Assembly: GCA_035279405.1 (NCBI GenBank)
Contig: DATEHU010000059.1
Span: 26,552-90,551, forward strand
Origin: Gammaproteobacteria bacterium
GTDB taxonomy: Bacteria; Pseudomonadota; Gammaproteobacteria; Natronospirales; REEB76
Length of the DNA: 64,000 nt
Reading direction: 5' to 3'
Position 1 is the stretch's first letter; every line of letters starts with the position of its first letter. Below the pieces are notes generated by a model. The model was not told the DNA's origin, did no database searches, and saw only the letters and a list, made by a program, of their open reading frames with translations. The position numbers and the translations under genes are program-made. Shown here piece after piece: positions 5,011-40,777 of this stretch.

Positions 5011-6561
5011 ATGAATCTCAGTCTGCCCGGCTCCGCAAGCGGCAAGCCGCACACCGCGATGATCACGCTCGCGGTGATGCTCGGCACCTTCATGCAGGTG
5101 CTCGACACCACCATCGCCAACGTGGCGCTGCCCAACATGCAGGGCAGCCTGAACGCCACTCAAGACCAGATTGCCTGGGTGCTGACCTCCTATATAGTGG
5201 GTTCGGCCATCATGACGCCGCCCACCGGCTGGCTCGCCGGCCGCTTTGGCCGGAAGCGCGTTTATCTGATTAGCATGCTCGGATTCATGGCGGCGTCGTT
5301 TCTGTGCGGCACCGCGACCACGCTCACGGAAATGGTGCTGCTGCGTACCCTCCAAGGCCTGTTCGGCGCCGCCATGGTGCCGATCTCGCAGGCCATCCTG
5401 CTCGACACCTGGCCGCGCGAAAAACACACCCAGGCCATGGCGATTTTCGGCGTGGGTGTGGTGCTGGGACCGGTCATCGGCCCGGTGCTGGGCGCGTATC
5501 TCACTGAATACTATTCCTGGCGCTGGGTGTTCTTCATCAACATTCCCGTCGGCATCGTGGCGGTACTTATGACACTCGCCTACGTGCGAGAAACCGCGAT
5601 CAACAAAATCCGCACTTTTGATGCGTGGGGTTTCCTGTTCATGAGCGTCGCCATCGGCGCGCTGCAACTGATGCTGGACCGCGGCGAGCGCCAGGATTGG
5701 TTCAATGCAGCCAGTACCCTCATTGAGCTGGCGTTGGTACTCATTGGCCTGTGGTTGTTCTTCGTGTACACCTACAGAAAAAAGAACTCCTACATAGACT
5801 TGAGCCTGTTCAAGGACCGGAATTTCGTGCTCAACAACGTGCTGGGATTCCTGCTGTTCCTGTGCATGTACGCCATCATGGCGCTTATTCCCCCGTTCGT
5901 GCAGAACCTGCTGGACTATCCGGTCATCATCGCCGGATTGGTGCTCATGCCGCGCGGCGTCGGTACCATGATTTCATTCGTGCTGGTGGGCAAGTTCTCG
6001 AACAAATTCAGCCCGCGTGTGGTCATGCTCACGGGTCTGGTGATCCTGGCGTTCTCGCTTTACGAGATGTACCACTTCAACACCCAGGTGGATACCTGGT
6101 TCATCACCTGGACCAGTTTCGTGCAGGGCATCGGCATCGGCCTGGTGATGGTGCCGATGTTCACCGCGGCGTTTGCCACGCTGCCGGCCGCGCAGCGCAC
6201 CGAGGGCACTGGTGTGTTCAACCTGATCCGCAACATCGGCGGGAGTTTCGGCATTTCCATCGCCTTTACGCTGCTGTCGCGCAGCACCCAGATCAGCCAT
6301 CAGGTGCTTGCTACCCACATCACGCCCTACAGTCAGGCTCTGCAGCTCTCGCCGCTGAGCGCCAGCATGAGCCTGCACAACACCCGTGACCTGGCCATGC
6401 TTAACGGCGTGGTCACGCGCCAGGCCGCCATGATCGGTTTCAACAACGACTTCATGCTGATGATGATCGTGAGCCTCGCCGCCATTCCGCTGGTGCTGCT
6501 GATGCGTCCGCCCAAACCAGTGCCGGGCGGGGCGCCGCATCACCCGGTAGTGGCCGACTGA
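5011..6561 (+). CDS. DHA2-family MFS efflux permease (EmrB/QacA-like), copy 1
   Basis: Start moved to ATG 5011 (MNLSLPGSASGKPHTAMITLAVMLGTFMQVLDTTIANVALPNMQGSL). Multi-TM profile and EmrB-type motifs (GRFGRKR, LQGLFGAAMVP). Confidence 0.9.
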   Translation: MNLSLPGSASGKPHTAMITLAVMLGTFMQVLDTTIANVALPNMQGSLNATQDQIAWVLTSYIVGSAIMTPPTGWLAGRFGRKRVYLISMLGFMAASFLCGTATTLTEMVLLRTLQGLFGAAMVPISQAILLDTWPREKHTQAMAIFGVGVVLGPVIGPVLGAYLTEYYSWRWVFFINIPVGIVAVLMTLAYVRETAINKIRTFDAWGFLFMSVAIGALQLMLDRGERQDWFNAASTLIELALVLIGLWLFFVYTYRKKNSYIDLSLFKDRNFVLNNVLGFLLFLCMYAIMALIPPFVQNLLDYPVIIAGLVLMPRGVGTMISFVLVGKFSNKFSPRVVMLTGLVILAFSLYEMYHFNTQVDTWFITWTSFVQGIGIGLVMVPMFTAAFATLPAAQRTEGTGVFNLIRNIGGSFGISIAFTLLSRSTQISHQVLATHITPYSQALQLSPLSASMSLHNTRDLAMLNGVVTRQAAMIGFNNDFMLMMIVSLAAIPLVLLMRPPKPVPGGAPHHPVVAD

Positions 6562-6571
6562 GCGGGTTCAC

Positions 6572-8173
6572 GTGATATTCCGCGCCGCCGCCAACAAGAC
6601 CCATACCGGCATGATCACCCTCGCGGTGATGCTCGGCACCCTGCTGCAGGTGCTGGACACCACCATCGTCAACGTGTCGCTGCCGGAGATGCAGGGCTCG
6701 CTGTCCGCGGATCAGGACCAGATTTCCTGGGTGCTCACGTCCTACATCATCGGCGCGGCCATCATGACGCCGCCCACCGGCTGGCTCGCCGGCCGCTTCG
6801 GCCGCCGCCGCGTGTTTCTGGTGAGCATGATCGGATTCTTGTGTGCCTCGTTTCTGTGCGGCACGGCCACCTCGCTCGCCGAAATCGTGGTGTTGCGCGT
6901 GATCCAGGGCCTGTTCGGCGCCGCCATGGTGCCGATTTCGCAGGCCATCATGCTGGACACCTGGCCGCGCGAAAAACACGGCATGGCCATGGCGATATTC
7001 GGCATCGGCCTGATGCTCGGCCCGATCATCGGGCCGGTGCTCGGCGCCTACCTCACCGAGGATTATTCCTGGCGCTGGGTGTTCTTCATCAACATCCCGA
7101 TCGGCGCGCTGGCCATCCTGCTCACGCTCACCTATGTGAAGAAGACCGCCATCAATCTTGCGCGCAAATTCGATGGCTGGGGCTTCCTGTTCCTGAGCGT
7201 CGCCATCGGTGCGCTGCAGATGATGCTCGACCGCGGTGAACAGAAAGACTGGTTCACCTCCGCGGAAATCCTCATCGAGTTCGGACTGGTGGTCATCGGC
7301 ACGTGGCTGTTCTTCACCCACAGCTACAAGAGGGACCACCCCTACATTGACCTGACCCTGTTCCGTGACCGCAACTACGTAGTCGGCAACATAATCGGTT
7401 TCATCGTGTTCGTGACGCTGTTTTCCACGCTGTCGCTGCTGCCGCAGCTCATGCAGGAGGTGCTGGCTTACCCCGTGATTCTCACCGGCTTGATCCTCGC
7501 ACCCCGCGGCATCGGCACCATGATTTCCATGATGGTCGTCGGCCGCATGTCAACCAAAATCGATCCGCGCTTCAATATGGCCGCCGGCATCGTCATCATG
7601 GCGCTGGGCACGTATTTCATGAGCGGATTCGACACCCAGATCGGGATCTGGCCGCTCGTGTGGACAGGCTTCTTGCAGGGCGTCGGCATGGGCCAGGTGT
7701 TCGTGCCGCTCACCACCGTGATGTTCTCCACGTTGCCGCCTCAGCAGCGCACCGAGGGCACCGGGGTTTACAACCTGATCCGCAACATCGGCGGCAGCTT
7801 GGGGATTTCCATCGGATTCACTCTTCTGGCCCGTTACATTCAGGTCAACCATGCGGTCATCGGCGGCCACATTACCCCCTACAGTCAGGCGCTGCAGGCG
7901 CTCCCGGCCCAGATGAATCTCGGCAGTGCGCACAGCCTTGCCGCCCTCAACGACATCATCAATCAGCAGGCCGCCATGATCAGTTTCAACAACGATTTTC
8001 TGCTCATGAGCGTGCTTTCCGTCATTGCCCTGCCGCTGGTATTTCTGATGAAGCGGCCGATTTATTCCAAGCCCCCGGGTGGCCCGGGAGCGGCAGCCGA
8101 CAGCACCGCTCCCGCGCGTGCGCCGCTGCCCGGGCGTGAAAACGTACCGGCCACCGCGAATGTTAGCGATTAG
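6572..8173 (+). CDS. DHA2-family MFS efflux permease (EmrB/QacA-like), copy 2 (tandem paralog)
   Basis: 533-aa ORF with a GTG start, 10 nt after copy 1. It is collinear with copy 1 over nearly the full length, with long identical runs such as IMTPPTGWLAGRFGR, LQGLFGAAMVPISQAI and SWRWVFFINIP. Confidence 0.9.
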   Translation: MIFRAAANKTHTGMITLAVMLGTLLQVLDTTIVNVSLPEMQGSLSADQDQISWVLTSYIIGAAIMTPPTGWLAGRFGRRRVFLVSMIGFLCASFLCGTATSLAEIVVLRVIQGLFGAAMVPISQAIMLDTWPREKHGMAMAIFGIGLMLGPIIGPVLGAYLTEDYSWRWVFFINIPIGALAILLTLTYVKKTAINLARKFDGWGFLFLSVAIGALQMMLDRGEQKDWFTSAEILIEFGLVVIGTWLFFTHSYKRDHPYIDLTLFRDRNYVVGNIIGFIVFVTLFSTLSLLPQLMQEVLAYPVILTGLILAPRGIGTMISMMVVGRMSTKIDPRFNMAAGIVIMALGTYFMSGFDTQIGIWPLVWTGFLQGVGMGQVFVPLTTVMFSTLPPQQRTEGTGVYNLIRNIGGSLGISIGFTLLARYIQVNHAVIGGHITPYSQALQALPAQMNLGSAHSLAALNDIINQQAAMISFNNDFLLMSVLSVIALPLVFLMKRPIYSKPPGGPGAAADSTAPARAPLPGRENVPATANVSD

Positions 8174-8258: not shown

Positions 8259-8972
8259 TCAGCGGCCGTTATCATCTCCCGGACCGCGCGGTGCCTTCAG
8301 GGCCGGATGACGTGCCGAGGGCAGATGCCAGCCGTAGCGAATCGCCATGAAGCGCAGCGCGAAACACAGGAGTCCGCCGATCACCGCTGGCCCTAGCGGA
8401 TGCAGGCCCAGCAGATGGCCCGCTACCACCACGACGGCACCGGCCAGCGCCGCGAGCGCATAGAGATCGGCGCGCAGCACGGCGGGAATTTCATTGACCA
8501 ACACATCACGCAGCATGCCGCCGCCGATACCAGTCAGCATGCCAAGCAGCGCCGCCATCACCGGATTGAGCTGAAACATCAGGGCTTTCTCCGTACCGGC
8601 GACCGCGAAAAACGCCAGACCCACGGCATCGAACCACAACACCGGGTTATTCAGGCGCGCAATCAGCGGATACCAGAAATACACTACAAAACCGGCGAGG
8701 ATGGATACGCCGAGGTAACTCCAGTTGGCAATGGCTGCCGGTGGCACGGCGCCGATCAGGAGATCGCGGGTGATGCCGCCGGCGTTGCCCGCGGCGAACG
8801 CCAACACCATGACGCCGAAAATATCCAGCCGGTGCTTGACCGCGGCCGCCGCACCGCTGATGGCAAACACGAACGTGCCGCCCAGGTCCAGTACTGTCAA
8901 CAGAATGTGAATCACGGGTACCCCTGTCAAATAACCGGCGAACTGCGAAAGCGTGCGGCTTGTTATTGTCAT
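8259..8972 (-). CDS. Trimeric intracellular cation channel family / UPF0126 (YadS-like) membrane protein
   Basis: 237-aa ORF with two internal UPF0126 repeats (FAISGAAAAVKHRLDIFGV...GGITRDLL and FAVAGTEKAL...GGGMLRDVL). Confidence 0.8.
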   Translation of the reverse strand: MTITSRTLSQFAGYLTGVPVIHILLTVLDLGGTFVFAISGAAAAVKHRLDIFGVMVLAFAAGNAGGITRDLLIGAVPPAAIANWSYLGVSILAGFVVYFWYPLIARLNNPVLWFDAVGLAFFAVAGTEKALMFQLNPVMAALLGMLTGIGGGMLRDVLVNEIPAVLRADLYALAALAGAVVVVAGHLLGLHPLGPAVIGGLLCFALRFMAIRYGWHLPSARHPALKAPRGPGDDNGR

Positions 8973-9106
8973 TCCCGCGACAGCAGGAATTCAGTGATTC
9001 AAGACCTGGACCCCTGCCTCCGCGGGGTGACAGATAAATCCCCCCTTCATAGTACCCAAATTCCAAATCCTGCGGACTTGAACCCGTCGCCGCCAAGTCC
9101 CACAGT

Positions 9107-14137: not shown

Positions 14138-14208
14138 CGTCACACCGGAGAACGCCGGTATCCAATATGAAATTGGCTTTTCTGGATAGCGGCGTTTGCG
14201 GGAATGAC
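14138..14208. repeat. Inverted pair of REP-like hairpin elements (family B, CTGGATNCCGGC...GCCGGAATGAC type)
   Basis: cgtcacaccggagaacgccggtatcca (14138-14164) and ctggatagcggcgtttgcgggaatgac (14182-14208) are inverted variants of the element found at 30792-30819 and 35936-35963. Confidence 0.6.
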
Positions 14209-14336
14209 AATGTTCAAACAGACACGCATTGCTCACAGGTTTCATTTGATTCTACATTAGCAGTGGCCGCGCAGTCGCCGCATGCCTTGCATTTCAGCAC
14301 TTGCGGTTTTCCTGACGCCTACCGGCATGTCGCCGG

Positions 14337-22218: not shown

Positions 22219-22984
22219 TGAGATCACTCTGAGTGAGCTGCTGCGCTTCGGGAGATTCGGGGAATTGCCTGATCAGTTGCCTGGCGTACTTGACGGCGGC
22301 CTGCTGGTTGCCGAGGGCGCGCTCCGTGCGCGCGCCGAGCAGCAACACTTCCGGCCGCGGCCTGGGGGAAGCCGAAGTGAAACGTTCGATGAAAGCGCGC
22401 GCCTCCAGATAGTGTTTCTGCTCGTAACTCATGCGCGCCATCTGGTAGAGCGCGTCAGGAAAATTCGGATTGATGGCCAGCGCGCGGCGAAAATACTGTG
22501 CAGCTGCGGCCTGGTCGGGAATCTTGTTGGCGCACACGCCGGCGTTGGTATAGGCCGCCTCCGGCGTGGGATACAGCGGATTCTCCGCGGCCTTGAGGAA
22601 ATACTGTTCGGATTCCTGCGGCTTGCCGTGCTGGCACAGGAACACCGCGTAGTTGTTCTGGGTTTGCGGATTATCCGGCGCCTTGCGCAAGGCGGTGCGG
22701 AAATTCTCGTCCGCGCGTTGCGTGTCGCCGGTGCTGTTGTACAACAGCCCGAGCGCCATGTAGGCATTGGCATTGTCGGAATCCTGCTTGAGTGCCAGCT
22801 GCAGCTTCTCCATCGCCAGATCGCGCCGGCCCTGCTGCAGATAGGCAACCCCCAGCTCCACGTTGAATTGTGAGGCCTGCTGCAATGACACCTTGTCGCC
22901 CGGCGCCGAGGACGAACTGACGCACGCCGCCAGCAATCCAGCCGCAAGCAACACCGCAACTCCGCCTGCAATCCGTATATTCAT
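22199..22984 (-). CDS. pilW: Type IV pilus biogenesis/stability lipoprotein PilW (PilF), TPR
   Basis: Lipobox LLAAC and TPR repeats ([36 protein letters not shown]). Conserved rlmN-pilW-rodZ order. Confidence 0.88.
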
Positions 22985-24351
22985 GCCAGCGCCTCCATTG
23001 AGCTTGGCCGCCGTTCGGCACGGCGAATCCGGTCCTGCACCTGCCCGGCCAGCTGGCCGCAGGCGGCATCAATATCCTCGCCGCGCGTACGGCGCGTGAT
23101 GGTGACGATGCCTTGACGCCACAGGTACTCGCCGAAGCGGTCAATCACCGCCTGCGGCGAGCGCCGGTAGTTCGTTCCGGGGAAAGAATTGAACGGAATC
23201 AGATTGACCTTGCAGGGAATGTCGCGCACCAGCGCCGCCAGTGCGCGCGCCTGCTCCGGGTTGTCATTGACGCCTTCCAGCATCACGTATTCGAAGGTGA
23301 CGTGTACATGGCTGCGATCCTTGTTGGCCACGTAGCGCCGGCACGCGGCCATGAGCTCGGCAAGCGGGTGCACCTGGTTGATGGGCACGAGTTCATCGCG
23401 TAAGGCATCGTCGGGCGCATGCAGCGACACCGCCAATGCCACGTCGCAGTCGCGCGCGAGCTTGTCGAGATTTGGCACCAGACCCGACGTGCTCACGGTC
23501 ACGCGCCGCTTGGACAGGCCGTAGCCGAAGTCGTCCAGCAGGATGCGCAACACCGGCAGCACGTTGCGGTAATTCGCCAGCGGCTCGCCCATGCCCATGA
23601 ACACCACGTTGGTGATCGGACGCTCCGCGCCGAGCGCGCGCTGTGCGACCAGCACCTGCGCGATGATTTCCGCGCTCGTGAGGTTGCGGTTGAATCCCTG
23701 TTTGCCGGTGGCGCAGAAGCTGCAGTTCATGGCGCAGCCGACCTGCGAAGAGATGCACAAGGTACCGCGGTAGCGACCCGAGGCGTTGGCCGAGGGGCCC
23801 CCTTTGGGGGATCGGCCCGCCGGTGGGGCGCATGCGGCCGCAGTCGCAGGAGTTGCGAGTGCAGCCAGTTCAATTTCCGCTATTGCTTCATCGCCAACAG
23901 CGCGGTCGCGACCCGAGGCGCTGGCCGAGGAGCCCCTTTCAGGGGATCGGACCGCCGGTGGGTCGCTTGCGACCGCAGTCGCGGCATCCGGGAAATCAGT
24001 CGGCGCAACATCCGCTATTGCATCATCATTGCTCGTGCGGTCGCCTTCGGGGATGAAGACAGTTTCAATGCTGTTGAACGCGTCCACGCCCAGCAGCCAC
24101 TTGCGCGTGCCGTCCGCGGAAAGCTGGTCGGCAAACACCGGCGGCAGACTAATTGCGGCACACTCCTTGAGGCGGGTGCGCAACGACTTGCCGAGGTCGG
24201 TCATGGCCTCGAAATCGGCGACGCCGCGCTGGTACATCCACTGCATCACCTGGCGCGCGTGAAACGGCTTGGCGCCCAATGCAGAGAAAAACTTTTCCAG
24301 CTCCGGACGTTCCAGCCCGAGCAGATTGGTTTTGGATGGGGTGGCCGCCAT
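22981..24351 (-). CDS. rlmN: 23S rRNA/tRNA (adenine-C2)-methyltransferase RlmN (radical SAM) carrying a 90-codon in-frame insertion
   Basis: N-terminus [17 protein letters not shown], radical-SAM motif [16 protein letters not shown], and [18 protein letters not shown] and INLIPFN. It is about 90 aa longer than expected because of an insertion between IPEGDR and GTLCISS. Confidence 0.93.
23767..24036. repeat. Two tandem 135-bp units (REP/MITE-like, family A) inside the rlmN coding sequence
   Basis: Unit 1 (23767-23901) and unit 2 (23902-24036) share an ~84-bp core (gcggtagcgacccgaggcgttggccgagg... vs gcggtcgcgacccgaggcgctggccgagg...). They also share a tail (tccgctattgcttcatc vs tccgctattgcatcatc). 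The core is the reverse complement of the intergenic copy at 28912-28978. Confidence 0.85.
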
Positions 24352-25688: not shown

Positions 25689-26858
25689 TCAACCGGCCGC
25701 GGGCGCGAGTTCCCGCAGGCGATGGTATTCCTCACTCACGATGTGCGCGGCCGTCTGCACTTCTTCGCTGGTAGTGAAGCGCCCGACGCTGAAGCGGATG
25801 CTGCTGCCGGCAAGCTGGTCATCGCGGCCCAGTGCGCGCAGCACGAACGAGGGTACCTTGTCGGCCGAGGTGCAGGCCGAACCGCTGGACACCGCGAGGC
25901 CATGACAGGCGAACAGCAGACTTTCGCCCTCGATGTCGGGGAAGCCCACGTTGAGGATGCCGCACACTCGCTGGTTCGGATGCCCGTTCAACAATGCTTC
26001 CGGCACCGCGGCATGCAGTGCCTGCCACAATTGCTGACGCAGCGCGCTGCAATGCGCTACATCCTTCTGCATTTCTTCGCGCGCGATGCGATAGGCCTCG
26101 CCCATGCCCACGATCTGGTGCGTGGCCAGCGTGCCGGAACGCAAACCGTGTTCATGTCCGCCGCCGTGGATCAGCGGATCGAGATTGATGTGCGGCTGGC
26201 TGCGTACATACAGCGCGCCGATGCCCTTCGGCCCGTAAACCTTGTGTCCCGAAAACGACATCAGGTCCACCGGCATTTGCTTGAGGTCGATGGGCAGCTT
26301 GCCGGCACTCTGCGCCGCATCCACGTGAAACCAGACGCCATGCGCACGCGCGATGGCACCGATAGCGGCGATGTCATTTGCCGTGCCGATTTCATTGTTG
26401 ACGTGCATGATCGAGACTAGCACGGTATCCGGGCGCAGAGCCTGAGCCACCGCCTGCGGCTCGATCAGCCCGTCGGCATTCGGCTTTATATAAGTGACTT
26501 CAAAACCGTCGCGCTCCAGCTGTTTGCAGGTGTCCAGCACCGCCTTGTGTTCGATCCGCGAAGTCACCATGTGCCGGCCCTTGTCGCGATAGAAATGCGC
26601 CGCGCCCTTGATCGCCAGATTGTCGGACTCGGTGGCGCCGGACGTAAAAATGATTTCGCCGGGCTCGGCGTTCACCAGCACCGCCACCTGCACGCGCGCC
26701 TGCTCAACCGCGCCGCGCGCCTTGCGGCCGGGAGCGTGGGCCGAAGCGGGATTGGCAAACAGGCCCTCGCAGGTCAGAAAGCCGGCCATTTTCTGCGCCA
26801 CGCGCGCATCCACCGGCGTGGTGGCCGCGTAATCGAGATATATGGTTTTTTCGATCAT
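25689..26858 (-). CDS. iscS: Cysteine desulfurase IscS (class I)
   Basis: Near-collinear with E. coli IscS as I recall it: [58 protein letters not shown] (PLP Lys), SSGSACTS (active-site Cys). Start at ATG 26858 ([10 protein letters not shown]). The C-terminus ends early, at LRELAPAAG. Confidence 0.9.
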
Positions 26859-28050: not shown

Positions 28051-28767
28051 TCACCCGCGCTTCGCGTGCTGCAGCGCGGTGAGCAAACCGCGCAGGATGT
28101 TGATTTCGGTCCGGTCGGGCTGTGCGCGATTGTACAGATGACGCAGCCGGCGCATGAGTTGCTTGGGTTGCTGCGGATCGAGAAAGCCGCTTGCGATCGC
28201 GGCGGACTCCAGATGCGTGTACAGGCCCTCCATCTCCTCGGCGCTAGCGGGCGATGCCGTGTCATCCGTGGTCGCCGGCGCACTTCCGCGCGCCAGCAGC
28301 AGTTCATAGGCCAGGATCTGCACCGCCGCGGCCAGATTGAGCGAACTGTATTCGGGGTTCGCGGGAATGTGCACCAGGAAATGGCAACGCTCAAGTTCCT
28401 CGTTCGTCAGGCCGGTGCGCTCGCGGCCGAACAGCAGCGCAACGTCGGTGTCGGGTGGGGTTTCGCATAACTTGGCCGCGCACGCGCGCGGAGTGATCGC
28501 CGGCGGACCGAGGTCACGCCGCCGCGCACTCGTGCCCGCGACCAGCGCGCAGCCCTGCAGCGCGTCGTCCAGCGTATCCACCACGCGCGCCTGGCGCAAA
28601 ACATCGAGCGCACCTGAAGCGCGCGCGTTGGCTTCGGCATCCGGAAAGCGTGTAGGACGCACCAGCACCAGCGCATCCAGGCACATGGTTTTCATGGCAC
28701 GCGCTGCGGCGCCGATGTTGCCCGGATGGCTGGGTTCCACCAGTACGATACGGATATGACGCGGCAT
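28051..28767 (-). CDS. trmJ: tRNA (cytidine/uridine-2'-O-)-methyltransferase TrmJ (SpoU family)
   Basis: IRIVLVEPSHPGNIGAAARAMKTMCLDALVLVRP closely matches my recollection of the E. coli TrmJ N-terminus. Conserved divergent pairing with suhB. Confidence 0.9.
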   Translation of the reverse strand: MPRHIRIVLVEPSHPGNIGAAARAMKTMCLDALVLVRPTRFPDAEANARASGALDVLRQARVVDTLDDALQGCALVAGTSARRRDLGPPAITPRACAAKLCETPPDTDVALLFGRERTGLTNEELERCHFLVHIPANPEYSSLNLAAAVQILAYELLLARGSAPATTDDTASPASAEEMEGLYTHLESAAIASGFLDPQQPKQLMRRLRHLYNRAQPDRTEINILRGLLTALQHAKRG

Positions 28768-28911
28768 GTTTATGGAGAGGCGTGTGGGCTTCTGTTATTC
28801 TACGCGCCCTGCCGCGCCCGCGCGGCCCGCGGCGAGATGGATCATCGCTCGTCGCAGTGCCTGCATAACACTTGTGTGGATGATTGCACGAAGCGATTTG
28901 ATGCGCTCGCC

Positions 28912-28978
28912 GGCGTCCCACCGGCGGGCCGATCCCCCAAATTAAGCAGGGGGCCCCTCGGCCTGCGCCTCGGGCCGC
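28912..28978. repeat. REP/MITE-like imperfect palindrome (family A), intergenic copy
   Basis: ggcgtcccaccggcgggccgatcccccaaattaagcagggggcccctcggcctgcgcctcgggccgc is the reverse complement of the cores of both units inside rlmN. Confidence 0.8.
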
Positions 28979-29022
28979 TTCTTAACCAGAATCCGGCCGC
29001 TGTGCCGCCTGCGGAGTTTGTC

Positions 29023-29814
29023 ATGCATCCCTTGTTGAACATCGCGGTCACCGCCGCGCGTAAAGCCGGTGACATCATCGTGCGCCATCTCGGCCGCGTG
29101 GACCGGCTGGTCGTCAAGGCCAAGGAACACAACGACTTCGTCAGCCAAGTGGACAGACTGGCCGAAGACGAAATTATCTACACCATCCGCAAGGCCCATC
29201 CGGATCACGCGATTCTCGCCGAGGAAAGCGGCACGCACTCCGGCAACAGCGAATTCCAGTGGATCATTGATCCGCTCGACGGTACCACCAATTTCCTGCA
29301 TGGCTTTCCGGTATTCTCGGTCTCCGTTGCGGTCAAACACCGCGGCCGGCTGGAACACGCCGTGGTGTACGATCCCATGCGCCAGGAACTGTTCACCGCC
29401 AGCCGCGGCGGCGGTGCGCAGCTCGACGACAAGCGCATCCGCGTAAGTCAGCAGAAAACCCTCGAAGGTGCGCTCATCGGCACCGGTTTTCCCTTCCGTG
29501 AAAACCAGAATCTCGAACTGTATATGCGCATGTTCGAAGTCATGGCGCGCCAGACCGCGGGCCTGCGCCGTGCCGGCTCGGCCGCGCAGGACCTCGCCTA
29601 CGTCGCCGCCGGCCGCCTCGATGGATTCTGGGAAATGGACCTGAAACCCTGGGATATCGCTGCCGGCGTCTTGTTAATTCAGGAAGCTGGCGGGCTGGTG
29701 GGCCATTTCGACGGCACCCTGGGCGTGCCGGAAGACGGCGACATCCTGGTCGGCGGAGAAAAACTCTTCAAGGCAATGGCGGAAGAATTCAAACAGTTAC
29801 TGACTACTCGCTAG
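29023..29814 (+). CDS. suhB: Inositol-1-monophosphatase SuhB
   Basis: MHPLLNIAVTAARKAGDII...EESG...WIIDPLDGTTNF...WDIAAG. Start at ATG 29023 (GCGGAG upstream). The track ORF N-extension runs through the repeat and was rejected. Confidence 0.93.
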   Translation: MHPLLNIAVTAARKAGDIIVRHLGRVDRLVVKAKEHNDFVSQVDRLAEDEIIYTIRKAHPDHAILAEESGTHSGNSEFQWIIDPLDGTTNFLHGFPVFSVSVAVKHRGRLEHAVVYDPMRQELFTASRGGGAQLDDKRIRVSQQKTLEGALIGTGFPFRENQNLELYMRMFEVMARQTAGLRRAGSAAQDLAYVAAGRLDGFWEMDLKPWDIAAGVLLIQEAGGLVGHFDGTLGVPEDGDILVGGEKLFKAMAEEFKQLLTTR

Positions 29815-30354: not shown

Positions 30355-30819
30355 GCCGAGCACTGGACTGAGCGAGGGCGAGATGCGAAGCATCGAGCGG
30401 GCATGCCAGGGATGGCGTGCCCAGTTTCCAAGCGAAGCAGGAGCGGAGCGCAGGAAAGAGGCCGTGCGCAGCACGGGCGAAGCCAGGATGGCGAGATTTC
30501 GCAGCGGCACAGGGATGTGCCGTCTGCGAAGCCCCGAGCGAGGGGTGAGGCGGAAGAAAGCGAAGCACTGCTTCGCTCCGCCGAACGCTGGGCTGCTTGC
30601 AGCCCGGCCGGCAGCACGCACAGGGCAGCCCGAAGGGTCGGCATCCGGGGGCGTCCTTTCTTTTCGCCTATTTTATTTGGACGAGCAAAGAAAATAGGCT
30701 CGTCGTGCGGGGGCGAAACCCCGCTTTCTATTCACGCGGCGAAGCCGCACAAAAAGTGAAGGCGCCGCCAGGGCGCCTTCCCATTCAAGATCTGGATTCC
30801 GGCATTCGCCGGAATGACG
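30355..30819. repeat. Hairpin-dense mosaic repeat region downstream of secF
   Basis: It begins with gccgagcactggactgagc (also at 35683-35701). It contains GCGAAGC five times at 45-49-bp spacing (last interval 34 bp), each followed by a different short hairpin. It ends with ctggattccggcattcgccggaatgacg (family B, also at 35936-35963). Confidence 0.7.
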
Positions 30820-35339: not shown

Positions 35340-35963
35340 GGCGGGGCTTTCGCGCCCCTACTACGAGGTACTTTCCTTGTACGAACAAGGAAAGTACCCA
35401 AAGGAAGTCGCCCCGGGGATTCCGCGCTTGTCTGAAACCGAATGGACGACCATTCGGTTTCAGCCGCGTGCCCTCGTTTCTCGCCCGGCTCGGGGCGGTG
35501 CAGACGGGCCACCTGGCCCGCTGCACCGGTTCGTCATCCTGACTTCACCCCGCCCAAAGGGCGGGCGCTCGAAGCTGCGCTTCTCGCCCTCACAGGGCTG
35601 CGAGACTCGGCGGACTCCACGGGTTTACGAAGAGCAAAAAGCGCCTGGTGCCGGTGTCTTGCTCTAAATACCCGTAGCGCGAGCCGAGCACTGGACTGAG
35701 CAAGGTTAGCCCGAAGGGGCACGAACAGGATGTTCGCGCTCCCGCCGTCAGGCCATGGATGGCCTGTCGGCGGGACTCCACAGCGAAGGAAGCGCACAGG
35801 GCAGTCGCGGTTTCCGCGACCCGCGCTCCGGGGGAATGGGTTTGGGCACTTTCGCCGAAACGAAAGTGCCCCGCCCGCGGGTGCGGGAACCCGCTCTTAA
35901 AAAATACATGCGGCCGTAGGCCGCTCGATATAAGACTGGATTTCGGCCTTCGCCGGAATGACG
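35340..35963. repeat. Hairpin-dense mosaic repeat region between queA and tgt
   Basis: A chain of 8-13-bp-stem hairpins: ggtactttccttgt/acaaggaaagtacc, gaaaccgaatgg/ccattcggtttc, ggcactttcg/cgaaagtgcc, gtcgcgg/ccgcgac. It also carries modules shared with 30355-30819 and 39725-39750 (gctcgaagctKcgcttctcgccc). It ends with the family B element at 35936-35963. Confidence 0.7.
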
Positions 35964-39566: not shown

Positions 39567-39654
39567 GCCCGGATGGCGGAACTGGTAGACGCGCGGGACT
39601 CAAAATCCCGTATCCCTTAAAGATGTGTGGGTTCGACTCCCTCTCCGGGCACCA
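39567..39654 (+). tRNA. tRNA-Leu (anticodon CAA)
   Basis: Hand fold: acceptor GCCCGGA/TCCGGGC, anticodon stem CGGGA/TCCCG with loop CTCAAAA, a long variable arm, T-loop TTCGACT (T-stem has one mismatch), and an encoded CCA. Confidence 0.85.
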
Positions 39655-39776
39655 ATTGATCATATCGACGCCGCGTACGACCAAGCCCTCCCTGGCACGC
39701 CAGCCAGCCCGCACTTCCTGTGCGGGCGCTCGAAGCTTCGCTTCTCGCCCCTGGCGCGAAGTCCAGCCCCGACATC

Positions 39777-39816
39777 CATGTCGGGGCGTTCGGGCCGATG
39801 CGAGCGGTGCTCGCAT
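39777..39816. repeat. 40-bp direct repeat, copy 1 (family D)
   Basis: catgtcggggcgttcgggccgatgcgagcggtgctcgcat is 39/40 identical to 40654-40693. It overlaps the perfect hairpin ccccgacat/atgtcgggg. Confidence 0.85.
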
Positions 39817-39832
39817 CAAAACACGGCCCTCA

Positions 39833-39849: not shown

Positions 39850-40071
39850 ATAAACTAAACGCGTCATGCTCACTGAACCATCCTTGGTAGGCTGACCTGC
39901 CGCCGCTTCCCTGCGGCGGCGCTCGGGCGGAAGCAACCTGTGTTTGCGCAGAACCTCGTGCTCACCCTTATTCTGGCGCCATTTACGGGAAGTTGCTGTT
40001 ATGTACCAGGATTCCCGCTTTCATCACGCCCTGGGGTAAGCGATAATCCGCTAACTGCAGAGGACAGAGAC

Positions 40072-40496: not shown

Positions 40497-40653
40497 ACCA
40501 AATCACCAATCTCGACGCAGACGCCCGAGCAAGCATTGCGGCCTGGAGTACGCCGTTTTCGCTTCTGGTTCTCGTTTGGCAGCTTAAGGGGAATTCTTAT
40601 GCTATCCGGGGCCCACATCCCTGATGCACCCGCGTAAAGCTCCGCTTCCCGCC

Positions 40654-40693
40654 CATGTCGGGGCGTTCGGGCCGATGCGAGCGGTGCCCGCAT
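40654..40693. repeat. 40-bp direct repeat, copy 2 (family D)
   Basis: catgtcggggcgttcgggccgatgcgagcggtgcccgcat. See copy 1. Confidence 0.85.
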
Positions 40694-40777
40694 GAAAGTA
40701 CGGCGGTAGCGCAACAGCTTATCGGCGCCTTATGATGCCGCACCGCACGTGCCCGCGTGCGCACTGGTCGAAAGCCC

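Follow-up and report, generated by a model that had tools for sequence, protein, structure and literature searches.

The long RlmN of a gammaproteobacterial genome probably carries two tandem in-frame copies of a dispersed hairpin-forming repeat

We analysed a 64,000-nucleotide stretch of DNA from a Gammaproteobacteria bacterium (positions 26,552 to 90,551 of contig DATEHU010000059.1, GenBank assembly GCA_035279405.1; hereafter the window) and found that its gene for the radical-SAM enzyme RlmN, a dual-specificity 23S rRNA/tRNA adenine-C2 methyltransferase, contains an insert made of two tandem units that are read in frame. We consider it likely (probability roughly 0.8) that these units are two copies of a ~135-141-bp hairpin-forming repeat, similar to repetitive extragenic palindromic (REP) sequences and to Rickettsia palindromic elements (RPEs), one copy of which entered the gene long ago and was doubled later. 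The coordinates of the insert, its parts and a related intergenic copy are given in Table 1.

Table 1. Features of the window that concern the rlmN insert and its dispersed counterpart (window positions)
Feature	Position	Strand	Details and evidence
rlmN coding sequence	22981-24351	minus	456 aa; intact, stop-free open reading frame
In-frame insert of two tandem 135-bp units, 270 bp = 90 codons (residues 106-195)	23767-24036	minus	Tandem Repeats Finder; codon view against empty-site orthologs
Unit towards the 5' end of the gene, 45 residues	23902-24036	minus	family profile match 23907-23988, profile positions 71-151, E 3e-5
Unit towards the 3' end of the gene, 45 residues	23767-23901	minus	family profile match 23770-23842, profile positions 83-153, E 7e-6
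Hairpin core (domain II) of the 3' unit, GCGCCCCACCGGCGGGCCGATCCCCC-AAA-GGGGGCCCCTCGGCCAACGCCTCGGGTCGC	23772-23842	minus	inverted-repeat pairs with the intergenic copy
Hairpin core (domain II) of the 5' unit, slightly diverged variant (..GGTCCGATCCCCTGAAAGGGGCTCCTCGGCC..)	23907-23977	minus	sub-pattern matches and predicted fold
Left junction codons GGC GAC CGC (G-D-R)	24037-24045	minus	in nearly all filled alleles
Dispersed copy of the element, only domain II recognisable	28896-28980	plus, orientation opposite to the rlmN units	pattern matches; nhmmer E 3e-6, profile positions 77-151

Two Pfam domains were recognised in the window protein, RlmN_N at residues 8-67 (E 8e-27) and Radical_SAM at residues 201-367 (E 1e-17). 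When it was compared with E. coli RlmN (3RF9) using HMMER (E 1e-121), the match fell into two blocks that flank the insert (query 5-106 to chain 15-115, and query 195-454 to chain 114-378), which places the insert between E. coli R114 and A115. The CxxxCxxC [4Fe-4S] motif, which reads C-AMN-C-SF-C, and both mechanistic cysteines (E. coli C118 and C355) are present and are invariant in the RlmN alignment; the C-terminal cysteine lies in ..DIDAACGQL.. of the window protein. The gene order iscS-iscU-iscA-ndk-rlmN-pilW-rodZ-hisS is common to the window and its relatives. A first-pass annotation of this DNA had judged the protein to be about 90 codons too long, and the orthologs with an empty site, which are 359-372 aa in length and have a 5-residue linker at this position, bear that out.

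The in-frame state of the insert can be read directly from its junctions. On the coding strand they are ..ATC CCC GAA GGC GAC CGC / 90 codons / GGT ACC TTG TGC ATC TCT TCG.., with no stop codon, and the protein reads ..IPEGDR ahead of the insert. The insert ends one codon before G-T-L-C, 3 residues ahead of the cysteine that matches E. coli C118 and precedes the CxxxCxxC loop, so the earlier remark that it adjoins the Fe-S motif was correct. Almost every filled allele has the left junction codons, and these match GCGACCGCG, the conserved 5' end of dispersed copies of the element; for these reasons they probably belong to the element. Tandem Repeats Finder returned a single array (23766-24027; period 135, 1.9 copies, 79% matches, zero indels, score 342), and in a pairwise alignment the two units are ~80% identical without gaps and both carry the tail tccgctattgcWtcatc. 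The array and the codon view thus agree with the description of the insert, in the first-pass annotation, as two tandem 135-bp units that keep the frame and introduce no stop.

Because the source is probably a metagenome-assembled genome (MAG), and repeats are a classic cause of mis-joins, we weighed whether the duplication, or the whole insert, arose by mis-assembly in a metagenome bin. The probability of such an artefact appears negligible. The units are only ~80% identical and the frame is kept, which collapse or expansion of identical repeats cannot yield; the identical protein has been recorded from 2 contigs; and one-unit and two-unit alleles at the rlmN site are found in many independent assemblies (NCBI, ENA, JGI and Logan).

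The first-pass annotation had derived the extra DNA from an interspersed palindromic repeat, with a second copy between genes at 28912-28978. We found that this copy is present and inverted relative to the rlmN units, and that it extends somewhat further than proposed, to ~28896-28980. It is flanked by a divergent trmJ-like gene (28051-28767, minus strand) and suhB (~29024-29814, plus strand). A gapped 40-47-nt pattern (GGCCGAGGGGCCCCC..GGGGGATCGGCCCGCCGGTGGG) matches the window only at 23788-23827 (plus) and 28917-28963 (minus), with 0 matches in 100 shuffles, and two more sub-patterns each match exactly both rlmN units and the intergenic copy where at most 0.02 matches are expected. A repeat finder paired the rlmN and intergenic sites through two arms, one of 40 nt (88% complementary) and one of 32 nt (91%). 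The stretch common to the rlmN units and the intergenic copy is therefore real, as had been claimed, although it spans ~70-80 bp and not 84 bp. Each of the three window copies is predicted to fold into nested stem-loops, and for the 3'-unit core the predicted energy is -22.5 kcal/mol as DNA (z -1.9).

The spacer that holds the intergenic copy was also compared with that of relatives. In L058 and L068, the trmJ-suhB spacer is ~110 bp long and lacks the element, and the window spacer is ~148 bp longer (28831-28978). Some 80 bp of this extra DNA align with the element, which leaves ~65 bp over. We do not claim a full-length element at the intergenic site, since only ~80 of the ~148 extra bp align convincingly with the rlmN units.

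To avoid circularity, we built an unbiased nhmmer profile only from 24 intergenic copies of other genomes. This profile matches over its full length the rlmN inserts of L007 (E 1e-29) and L070 (E 1e-22), as well as a copy within mutS in L030 (E 4e-30). These full-length matches indicate that one 135-141-bp rlmN insert corresponds to one whole element. The two window units and the window intergenic copy match over the right half of the profile, domain II (E-values in Table 1), as do the rlmN inserts of L069, L058, L068 and L041. In the window lineage, domain I falls below profile detection, and its closing stem (GCGACCGC..GCGGTCGC) is still visible. Judging from position, length, residual motifs and this closing stem, the left half of the window units is probably homologous to the element as well.

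These matches also bear on the idea that the insert is a lineage-specific protein linker, or low-complexity expansion, whose resemblance to intergenic DNA is a coincidence. The composition of the insert (rich in Ala, Ser, Pro, Gly, Asp and Arg) and its predicted disorder are what such a linker would show, and GC-rich genomes do produce such tracts. However, no chance matches are expected for the exact 40-47-nt gapped pattern that links the insert to the intergenic copy, a profile made from intergenic copies of other genomes recognises the insert, and the L007 and L070 inserts are homologous to the element over their full length. Taken together, the pattern and profile matches effectively refute a coincidental resemblance, which we regard as very improbable.

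The repeat family to which the profile belongs is widely dispersed. Our core-pattern scan, which covered one genome per species with one exact pattern, returned 55 loci, and ~45 of them align over ~140 bp, from GCGACCGCGAAGGGCGGAGCAGG.. to ..GCTCCGAGGCGCC. The copies are mostly intergenic and are found in uncultured Burkholderiales, Betaproteobacteria, Hydrogenophilales and 'Gammaproteobacteria' bins; three fragmentary MAGs contribute 13, 12 and 9 loci. Further genomic copies of the unit therefore exist, in the window and at many loci in related genomes, and the mobile unit is palindromic as had been proposed, but it is a two-hairpin element of ~140 bp and not merely one of ~65-84 bp.

The conserved unit measures ~135-145 bp and consists of two hairpin domains, of which domain II alone occupies ~60-80 bp. 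A consensus fold from 18 full-length copies contains both domains and 38 pairs, with a compensatory change in 14 of the 38. Domain I has a 9-bp closing stem (GCGACCGCG/CGCGGTCGC) around smaller hairpins, and domain II is a GGCCGA/UCGGCC and CCCC/GGGG hairpin with an outer stem. This outer stem occurs in two types, a window type (CCCACCGGCGG..CGCCTCGGG) that is found in rlmN and in the window intergenic copy, and a Burkholderiales type (CCTCTGCGCTGG..GCTCCGAGG) that is found in L007 and L069. The ends of the window unit (GCGACC.. and ..GGTCGC) are complementary over 6 nt, with CGC flanking both sides, and dispersed copies end in ..GGCGCC. Among 30 aligned copies we found no consistent target-site duplication.

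Two kinds of arrangement were seen at individual loci. In Nitrosovibrio sp. Nv4 (L040 542-775) and Nv6 (L052 6319-6645), shortened element copies form intergenic head-to-tail arrays with a period of 99-102 bp, with 3 copies in one strain and 4 or more in the other, 5' of the same gene in both strains. Tandem amplification is thus a property of the family and not limited to the rlmN copy. In a Hydrogenophilus MAG (DYFL01000001, L039 ~6290-6560), a glyoxalase-like gene has its 3' end (..VIAFVEDPDGYKIEFIQKG..) in two copies of ~75 bp with a domain-II copy between them, so that this insertion was accompanied by duplication of the gene end.

The family has no counterpart in Rfam 15 at the thresholds used: the window and 10 loci gave no match at the gathering score, a fresh copy gave none at E<=1, and the window insert gave only a chance-level snoRNA match (13 bits, E 0.83). 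Since many Burkholderiales copies precede a ..CCTCCTTAAAAACAGGAGGGGAAAA-ATG module, we suspected that the element might be a riboswitch, a leader RNA or the end of an insertion sequence. That module forms a hairpin containing AGGAGG and resembles a sequestered ribosome-binding site. We rejected the suspicion because the downstream open reading frames at all loci are short, unrelated and mostly spurious, Rfam is blank, and the AGGAGG module is another repeat. One Burkholderiales MAG has a guanidine-II (mini-ykkC) riboswitch match above the gathering score (L048 4782-4828, 34.7 bits) that has nothing to do with the element. Scanning metagenomes for window-type copies gave 0 matches with a first pattern and 6 chance matches without the hairpin core with a second.

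The presence or absence of the insert varies among close relatives of the window rlmN, as we observed directly in the 120 best RlmN relatives. About 80 of the 120 have the 5-residue linker (DDERG, EDERG, DDGRG and similar), the ancestral form also found in E. coli. About 20 (among them P0004, P0006, P0011, P0016 and P0073) have 45 or 47 extra residues that begin with GDR.. and end with ..AGRSPxxGPSAxAxGRYRG, and in about 10 (P0008, P0028, P0029, P0045-48, P0087, P0094 and P0095) in-frame remnants of 12-29 extra residues keep GDR..GRYRG. The doubled insert occurs in two (P0001, the window protein, and P0002), and two more (P0099 and P0117) have a second, unrelated 45-residue segment nested in the first insert. 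The site is thus filled, with one unit, two units or decayed remnants, in ~30 of the 120, and when the insert is left out of the tree, filled alleles fall at no fewer than 8 separate positions, interleaved with empty ones. Homologous inserts occupy the site in RlmN proteins only 53-87% identical to that of the window. The ortholog alignment therefore reveals a polymorphic site and no universal, non-repetitive domain of the same length.

Two observations concern unusual members of this set. The nested segment of P0099 (453 aa) and P0117 (463 aa) is 45 residues or 135 bp long (RRNEEQGPHFNGDGTVEPAVGASQPAHCASPGSDPKGSLFRPTT..), and may represent another element inserted into the first one. P0034, a 509-aa RlmN relative, has a ~140-residue internal duplication of the radical-SAM core (alignment columns 326-468) that could be either real or an artefact of assembly or gene calling.

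The alleles closest to the window illustrate this variation. L056/57 and L060/61, with 94% protein identity and the same gene order, have an empty site (..CCG GAT GAC GGC AGA GGC ACC TTG TGC). L058/59, in contrast, has a two-unit insert of other make-up in which both hairpins carry the loop variant CGC-GAAGAC-GCG, and this allele is found in two independent assemblies (L058 from NCBI and L059 from ENA). The identities of the flanking genes group these loci as (window,(L058,(L056,L060))), with the filled L068 outside. Given this grouping, the empty alleles L056 and L060 look derived within a small clade, which would imply loss of the insert or replacement of the allele. The linker Arg codon in the empty L056 and L060 is AGA, a rare codon in GC-rich DNA, and CGC is found on both sides of the insert in all filled alleles examined. 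The AGA codon may mean that the empty allele was imported and not made by deletion. When identity was followed along the sequences of the window and L041, and of L058 and L056, no clear recombination tract stood out around the insert.

The scatter of filled alleles could also come from recurrent, site-specific (homing-like) insertion, in which the element prefers the rlmN linker and entered it independently in many lineages. Besides the filled alleles at 8 or more places in the tree, two further features are as this would predict: the inserts of L007 and L070 are near-consensus and full-length while those of the window, L041, L068 and L069 match over the right half only, which suggests different ages, and the outer-stem type in rlmN (window or Burkholderiales type) follows that of the dispersed copies. 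We nonetheless consider recurrent insertion possible but unlikely. The window-type left halves of P0001 and P0011 are homologous and already decayed, so these two are not independent fresh insertions. The same junctions and frame in all filled alleles fit one event equally well, the grouping of the window with L058, L056 and L060 makes the empty alleles look like products of loss or replacement and not like sites that had yet to gain an insert, and gene conversion from dispersed copies is another way in which inserts can retain a fresh appearance. Neither a transposase nor a target motif was found, a transposase not having been sought in the source genome.

We propose that one ancient entry into rlmN was followed by the doubling of the unit, an order of events that is best read from the comparison with L041, whose RlmN is 76% identical to that of the window. 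The single L041 insert can be aligned, with no gaps, to the left half of either window unit. This alignment argues that the window-type insert is old and that the doubling came later; on this basis the insertion does not appear to be recent, and among these alleles only the doubling appears to be lineage-specific. The suggestion of a recent event in the first-pass annotation is thus contradicted, both by this alignment and by the homologous inserts at the same site in proteins as divergent as those listed above.

The comparison with L041 also uncovered an excess of DNA conservation in the hairpin core. Between the window and L041, DNA identity is 69% in the left half of the unit, 79% in the flanking rlmN sequence and 59% at third codon positions of the flank, but 98% in the 62-nt core. 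The window 3' unit and L041 share 57 consecutive identical bases in the core, and at a background of 0.59 the chance that all 19 third positions are identical is ~4e-5 (arithmetic from the identities). In L058, the core changes from CCCCC-AAA-GGGGG (P-K-G-G) to CCCGC-GAAGAC-GCGGG (R-E-D-A-G), and pairing is kept while the peptide is altered. Because such compensatory changes alter the peptide, they point to constraint or homogenisation acting on the nucleic acid and not on the protein. From these sequences, the near-identity of the core would be best explained by gene conversion from family copies, or by selection on the DNA or RNA hairpin, over protein function. We infer gene conversion as one of these two routes from two observations that fit it: the rlmN core has the same outer-stem type as the window's own intergenic copy, and domain II, the part that is still fresh in the window, is the sole part recognisable in that one dispersed copy.

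Selection could instead have kept the segment because it was domesticated, the hairpin core or the peptide AGRSPxGGPSAxASGRYRG being useful to rlmN. Possible forms of use are an mRNA structure that tunes translation or decay, and an Arg/Gly/Ser-rich flexible arm that aids binding of rRNA or tRNA. The conservation of the core relative to the enzyme gene around it and to its synonymous sites, the persistence of the insert across distant RlmN proteins, the retention of the motif and of the GRYRG junction even in shortened alleles, and the position next to the RNA-binding N-terminal domain are all in keeping with domestication. Against it stand very close relatives that lack the insert and the in-frame deletion decay of the ten remnant alleles named above (P0008 to P0095). 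The change from PKGG to REDAG in a compensated stem speaks against a constrained peptide, disorder is predicted for the region, and the element also lies within two other genes. We therefore regard domestication as doubtful.

The two other host genes are mutS of a Hydrogenophilaceae MAG (JBAZLW010000092, L030 7368-7518), where a full-length element is in frame between the Pfam domains MutS_II and MutS_III, and a gene for a DUF2249 protein (P0127), where an exhaustive profile search located a full-length in-frame element. The orientation and reading frame of the element are alike in rlmN, mutS and the DUF2249 gene, although a common frame in three host genes is only suggestive. We rejected stop codons as the force behind this common frame, because few stops occur in any of the element's six frames. 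The exhaustive search was run on cluster representatives and gave 9 short matches including P0127; clustering at 50% identity hides insert-bearing members. A word-indexed protein search with the insert-peptide alignment returned 6 short hypothetical open reading frames and missed known RlmN positives, so it is uninformative on other hosts.

These hosts fit a further reading, in which the repeat would be more than a passenger: a so far undescribed element, mobile or driven by conversion, that is compatible with reading frames and favours one site in rlmN. Its core would be kept constant through recognition, be it of the DNA by a recombinase or transposase or of the RNA by the machinery of translation or decay. 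Such an element would account for why the same site is filled in distant lineages and empty in close kin, why 57 bases are identical where synonymous sites are saturated, and why orientation and frame recur in rlmN, mutS and the DUF2249 gene. We hold it to be improbable.

At the protein level, the insert is predicted to be a disordered surface loop that joins the N-terminal domain and the radical-SAM core. In an AlphaFold2 model run with a 30-sequence alignment, residues 105-191 have a predicted local distance difference test (pLDDT) score <50 and no secondary structure, and the N-terminal domain and the radical-SAM barrel are confident (predicted template modelling score, pTM, 0.73). The first-pass annotation had asked whether the insert forms such a loop, and the model answers in its favour. 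We rejected an intein, an intron and programmed bypass as accounts of the extra segment, as nothing in the sequence supports any of them. The test for an intein was negative: the segment has 90 aa (inteins have at least ~130), starts with Thr-Ser-Asn (inteins with Cys or Ser), ends in ..GRYR/G (inteins in His-Asn, with Cys, Ser or Thr next, and they also have conserved splicing blocks), has no Pfam match and is predicted to be disordered.

Taken together, these data suggest the following course of events. One copy of the element would have entered the short linker between the RNA-binding N-terminal domain of RlmN and the first strand of the radical-SAM barrel, and the gene would have stayed open because the length of the element is a multiple of three and it contains no stop. 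The insert would then have been inherited for a long time, and in the window lineage domain I would have drifted to an acidic, Ala-rich stretch with domain II left almost unchanged. Later, the whole 135-bp unit would have been doubled head to tail, and from its ends we infer that this probably happened by slippage or unequal recombination between the GAC CGC / GGT CGC end repeats. The result would be translated as a 90-residue disordered surface loop that the enzyme tolerates.

Several points weigh against this reconstruction. The strong DNA conservation of the core could signal a function that is missed when the insert is viewed as a tolerated passenger. The unbiased profile recognises only the right half of the window units, the z-scores of single-copy hairpins are modest (-1.6 to -2.1), and the 64-kb window contains just one further copy of the element. 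No terminal inverted repeats, target-site duplication or associated transposase was identified, a transposase again not having been sought in the source genome, so that mobility of the element is deduced from its distribution alone. Translation and activity of the long form, and tolerance of the insert by the enzyme, are likewise presumed.

The in-frame placement of palindromic elements in genes is a known phenomenon. What is new here is the repeat family, the recurrent occupation of one rlmN site, the tandem duplication within a gene and the excess DNA conservation of the core. The window gene documents a hairpin repeat that is read as protein in a radical-SAM enzyme, 3 residues from a catalytic cysteine, and the natural series of empty, one-unit, two-unit and decayed alleles is a ready experiment on tolerance of insertions at the RlmN domain junction. 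It also illustrates the fate of such inserts over time, one half drifting to an acidic Ala-rich linker while the hairpin half is frozen. For annotation, it explains RlmN proteins that are 40-90 residues too long in many uncultured Beta- and Gammaproteobacteria, and it defines a ~140-bp repeat family that is absent from Rfam. Of all these features, only the excess conservation of the core DNA could open new ground, be it gene conversion between dispersed copies or a nucleic-acid function.

Other repeats were seen in the window in passing. A second, unrelated short palindrome (CTGGATTCCGGCATTCGCCGGAATGACG) occurs at 14182-14209, 30792-30819 and 35936-35963, with an inverted partner at 8965-8994; its opposite strand, CGTCATTCCGGCGAATGCCGGAATCCAG, has a CGTC tag and then a 9-bp stem, and it fits the description of CGTC REPs better than the rlmN element does. 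A 52-nt repeat lies just 3' of a tRNA (39567-39651) at 39776-39827, 39909-39960 and 40653-40704, two copies being 92% identical and the third 62%. Long direct repeats at 5030-8009, 1552 bp apart and 74-80% identical, are probably two tandem paralogous genes.

Among known systems, the enzyme itself is most directly compared with E. coli RlmN (3RF9/3RFA, and 5HR6/5HR7 with tRNA). The window RlmN has the same N-terminal domain, CxxxCxxC motif and both mechanistic cysteines, but it has 90 extra residues where the E. coli protein has the plain linker EDDR-ATLC.

For the element, intragenic REPs offer one parallel. Di Nocera et al. (2013; BMC Genomics 14:522, PMC3733652) described in-frame intragenic copies of GTAG- and CGTC-tagged REPs in many species, with stretches of 43-82 aa encoded by grouped intragenic REPs in Thauera and R. 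conorii, and with many host genes that act on nucleic acids (uvrA, recB, dnaE2, truB and tRNA synthetases). In view of these many cases, the statement in the first-pass annotation that tolerated intragenic REP insertions are rare was overstated. The host-gene list in the supplement of that study does not contain rlmN or mutS, and it reported insertion of REPs at the same site only for recB of two Xanthomonas species (Di Nocera et al., 2013), unlike the one rlmN site that is occupied across many lineages here. The element resembles intragenic REPs in being a GC-rich palindrome that is dispersed between genes, with some copies in frame within genes, but its unit of ~140 bp with two hairpin domains is far from the 20-40 bp of a REP, a size that only domain II by itself comes near.

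The tags give a mixed picture. Burkholderiales-type copies have CGTC beside the stem on the opposite strand (AGCGTCGGCCGAGGGGCCCC..), as CGTC REPs do, and that strand reads ..AGCGTC-GGCCGAGGGGCCCC-NNNN-GGGGATCGGCC.., with a 4-nt loop and a bulged stem (the superfamily has a stem of 8-9 bp and a loop of 4-5 nt). Window copies, in contrast, carry CGTT, CGCT or CGCA where CGTC would stand, and their loops measure 3 or 10 nt. REPs mobilised by RAYT (REPtrons) are marked by a GTAG tag and by a Y1 (IS200/IS605-like) transposase gene that the repeats flank. One window unit begins GCGGTAGCG, but neither the other unit (GCGGTCGCG) nor the intergenic copy conserves the GTAG. The RPEs of Rickettsia also end in CGTC (Di Nocera et al., 2013). 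CGTC REPs are not known to have a dedicated transposase.

RPEs are the classic example of intragenic palindromic elements, and were reportedly described in frame in housekeeping genes by Ogata and colleagues in 2000. Like the repeat in rlmN, they are palindromic, ~100-150 bp long and in frame in housekeeping genes, where they are translated as additional surface segments, and their presence varies among related species, with degraded copies in close species. Their hosts, however, are AT-rich, obligate intracellular Alphaproteobacteria and not free-living, GC-rich Beta- and Gammaproteobacteria, and here the element is tandemly doubled within the gene; the likeness to RPEs is one of behaviour only, and a relationship in sequence is not expected. 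[quoted passage not shown] Membership of any named family is not established, and by this comparison the element appears closest in size and behaviour to RPEs and intragenic MITEs.

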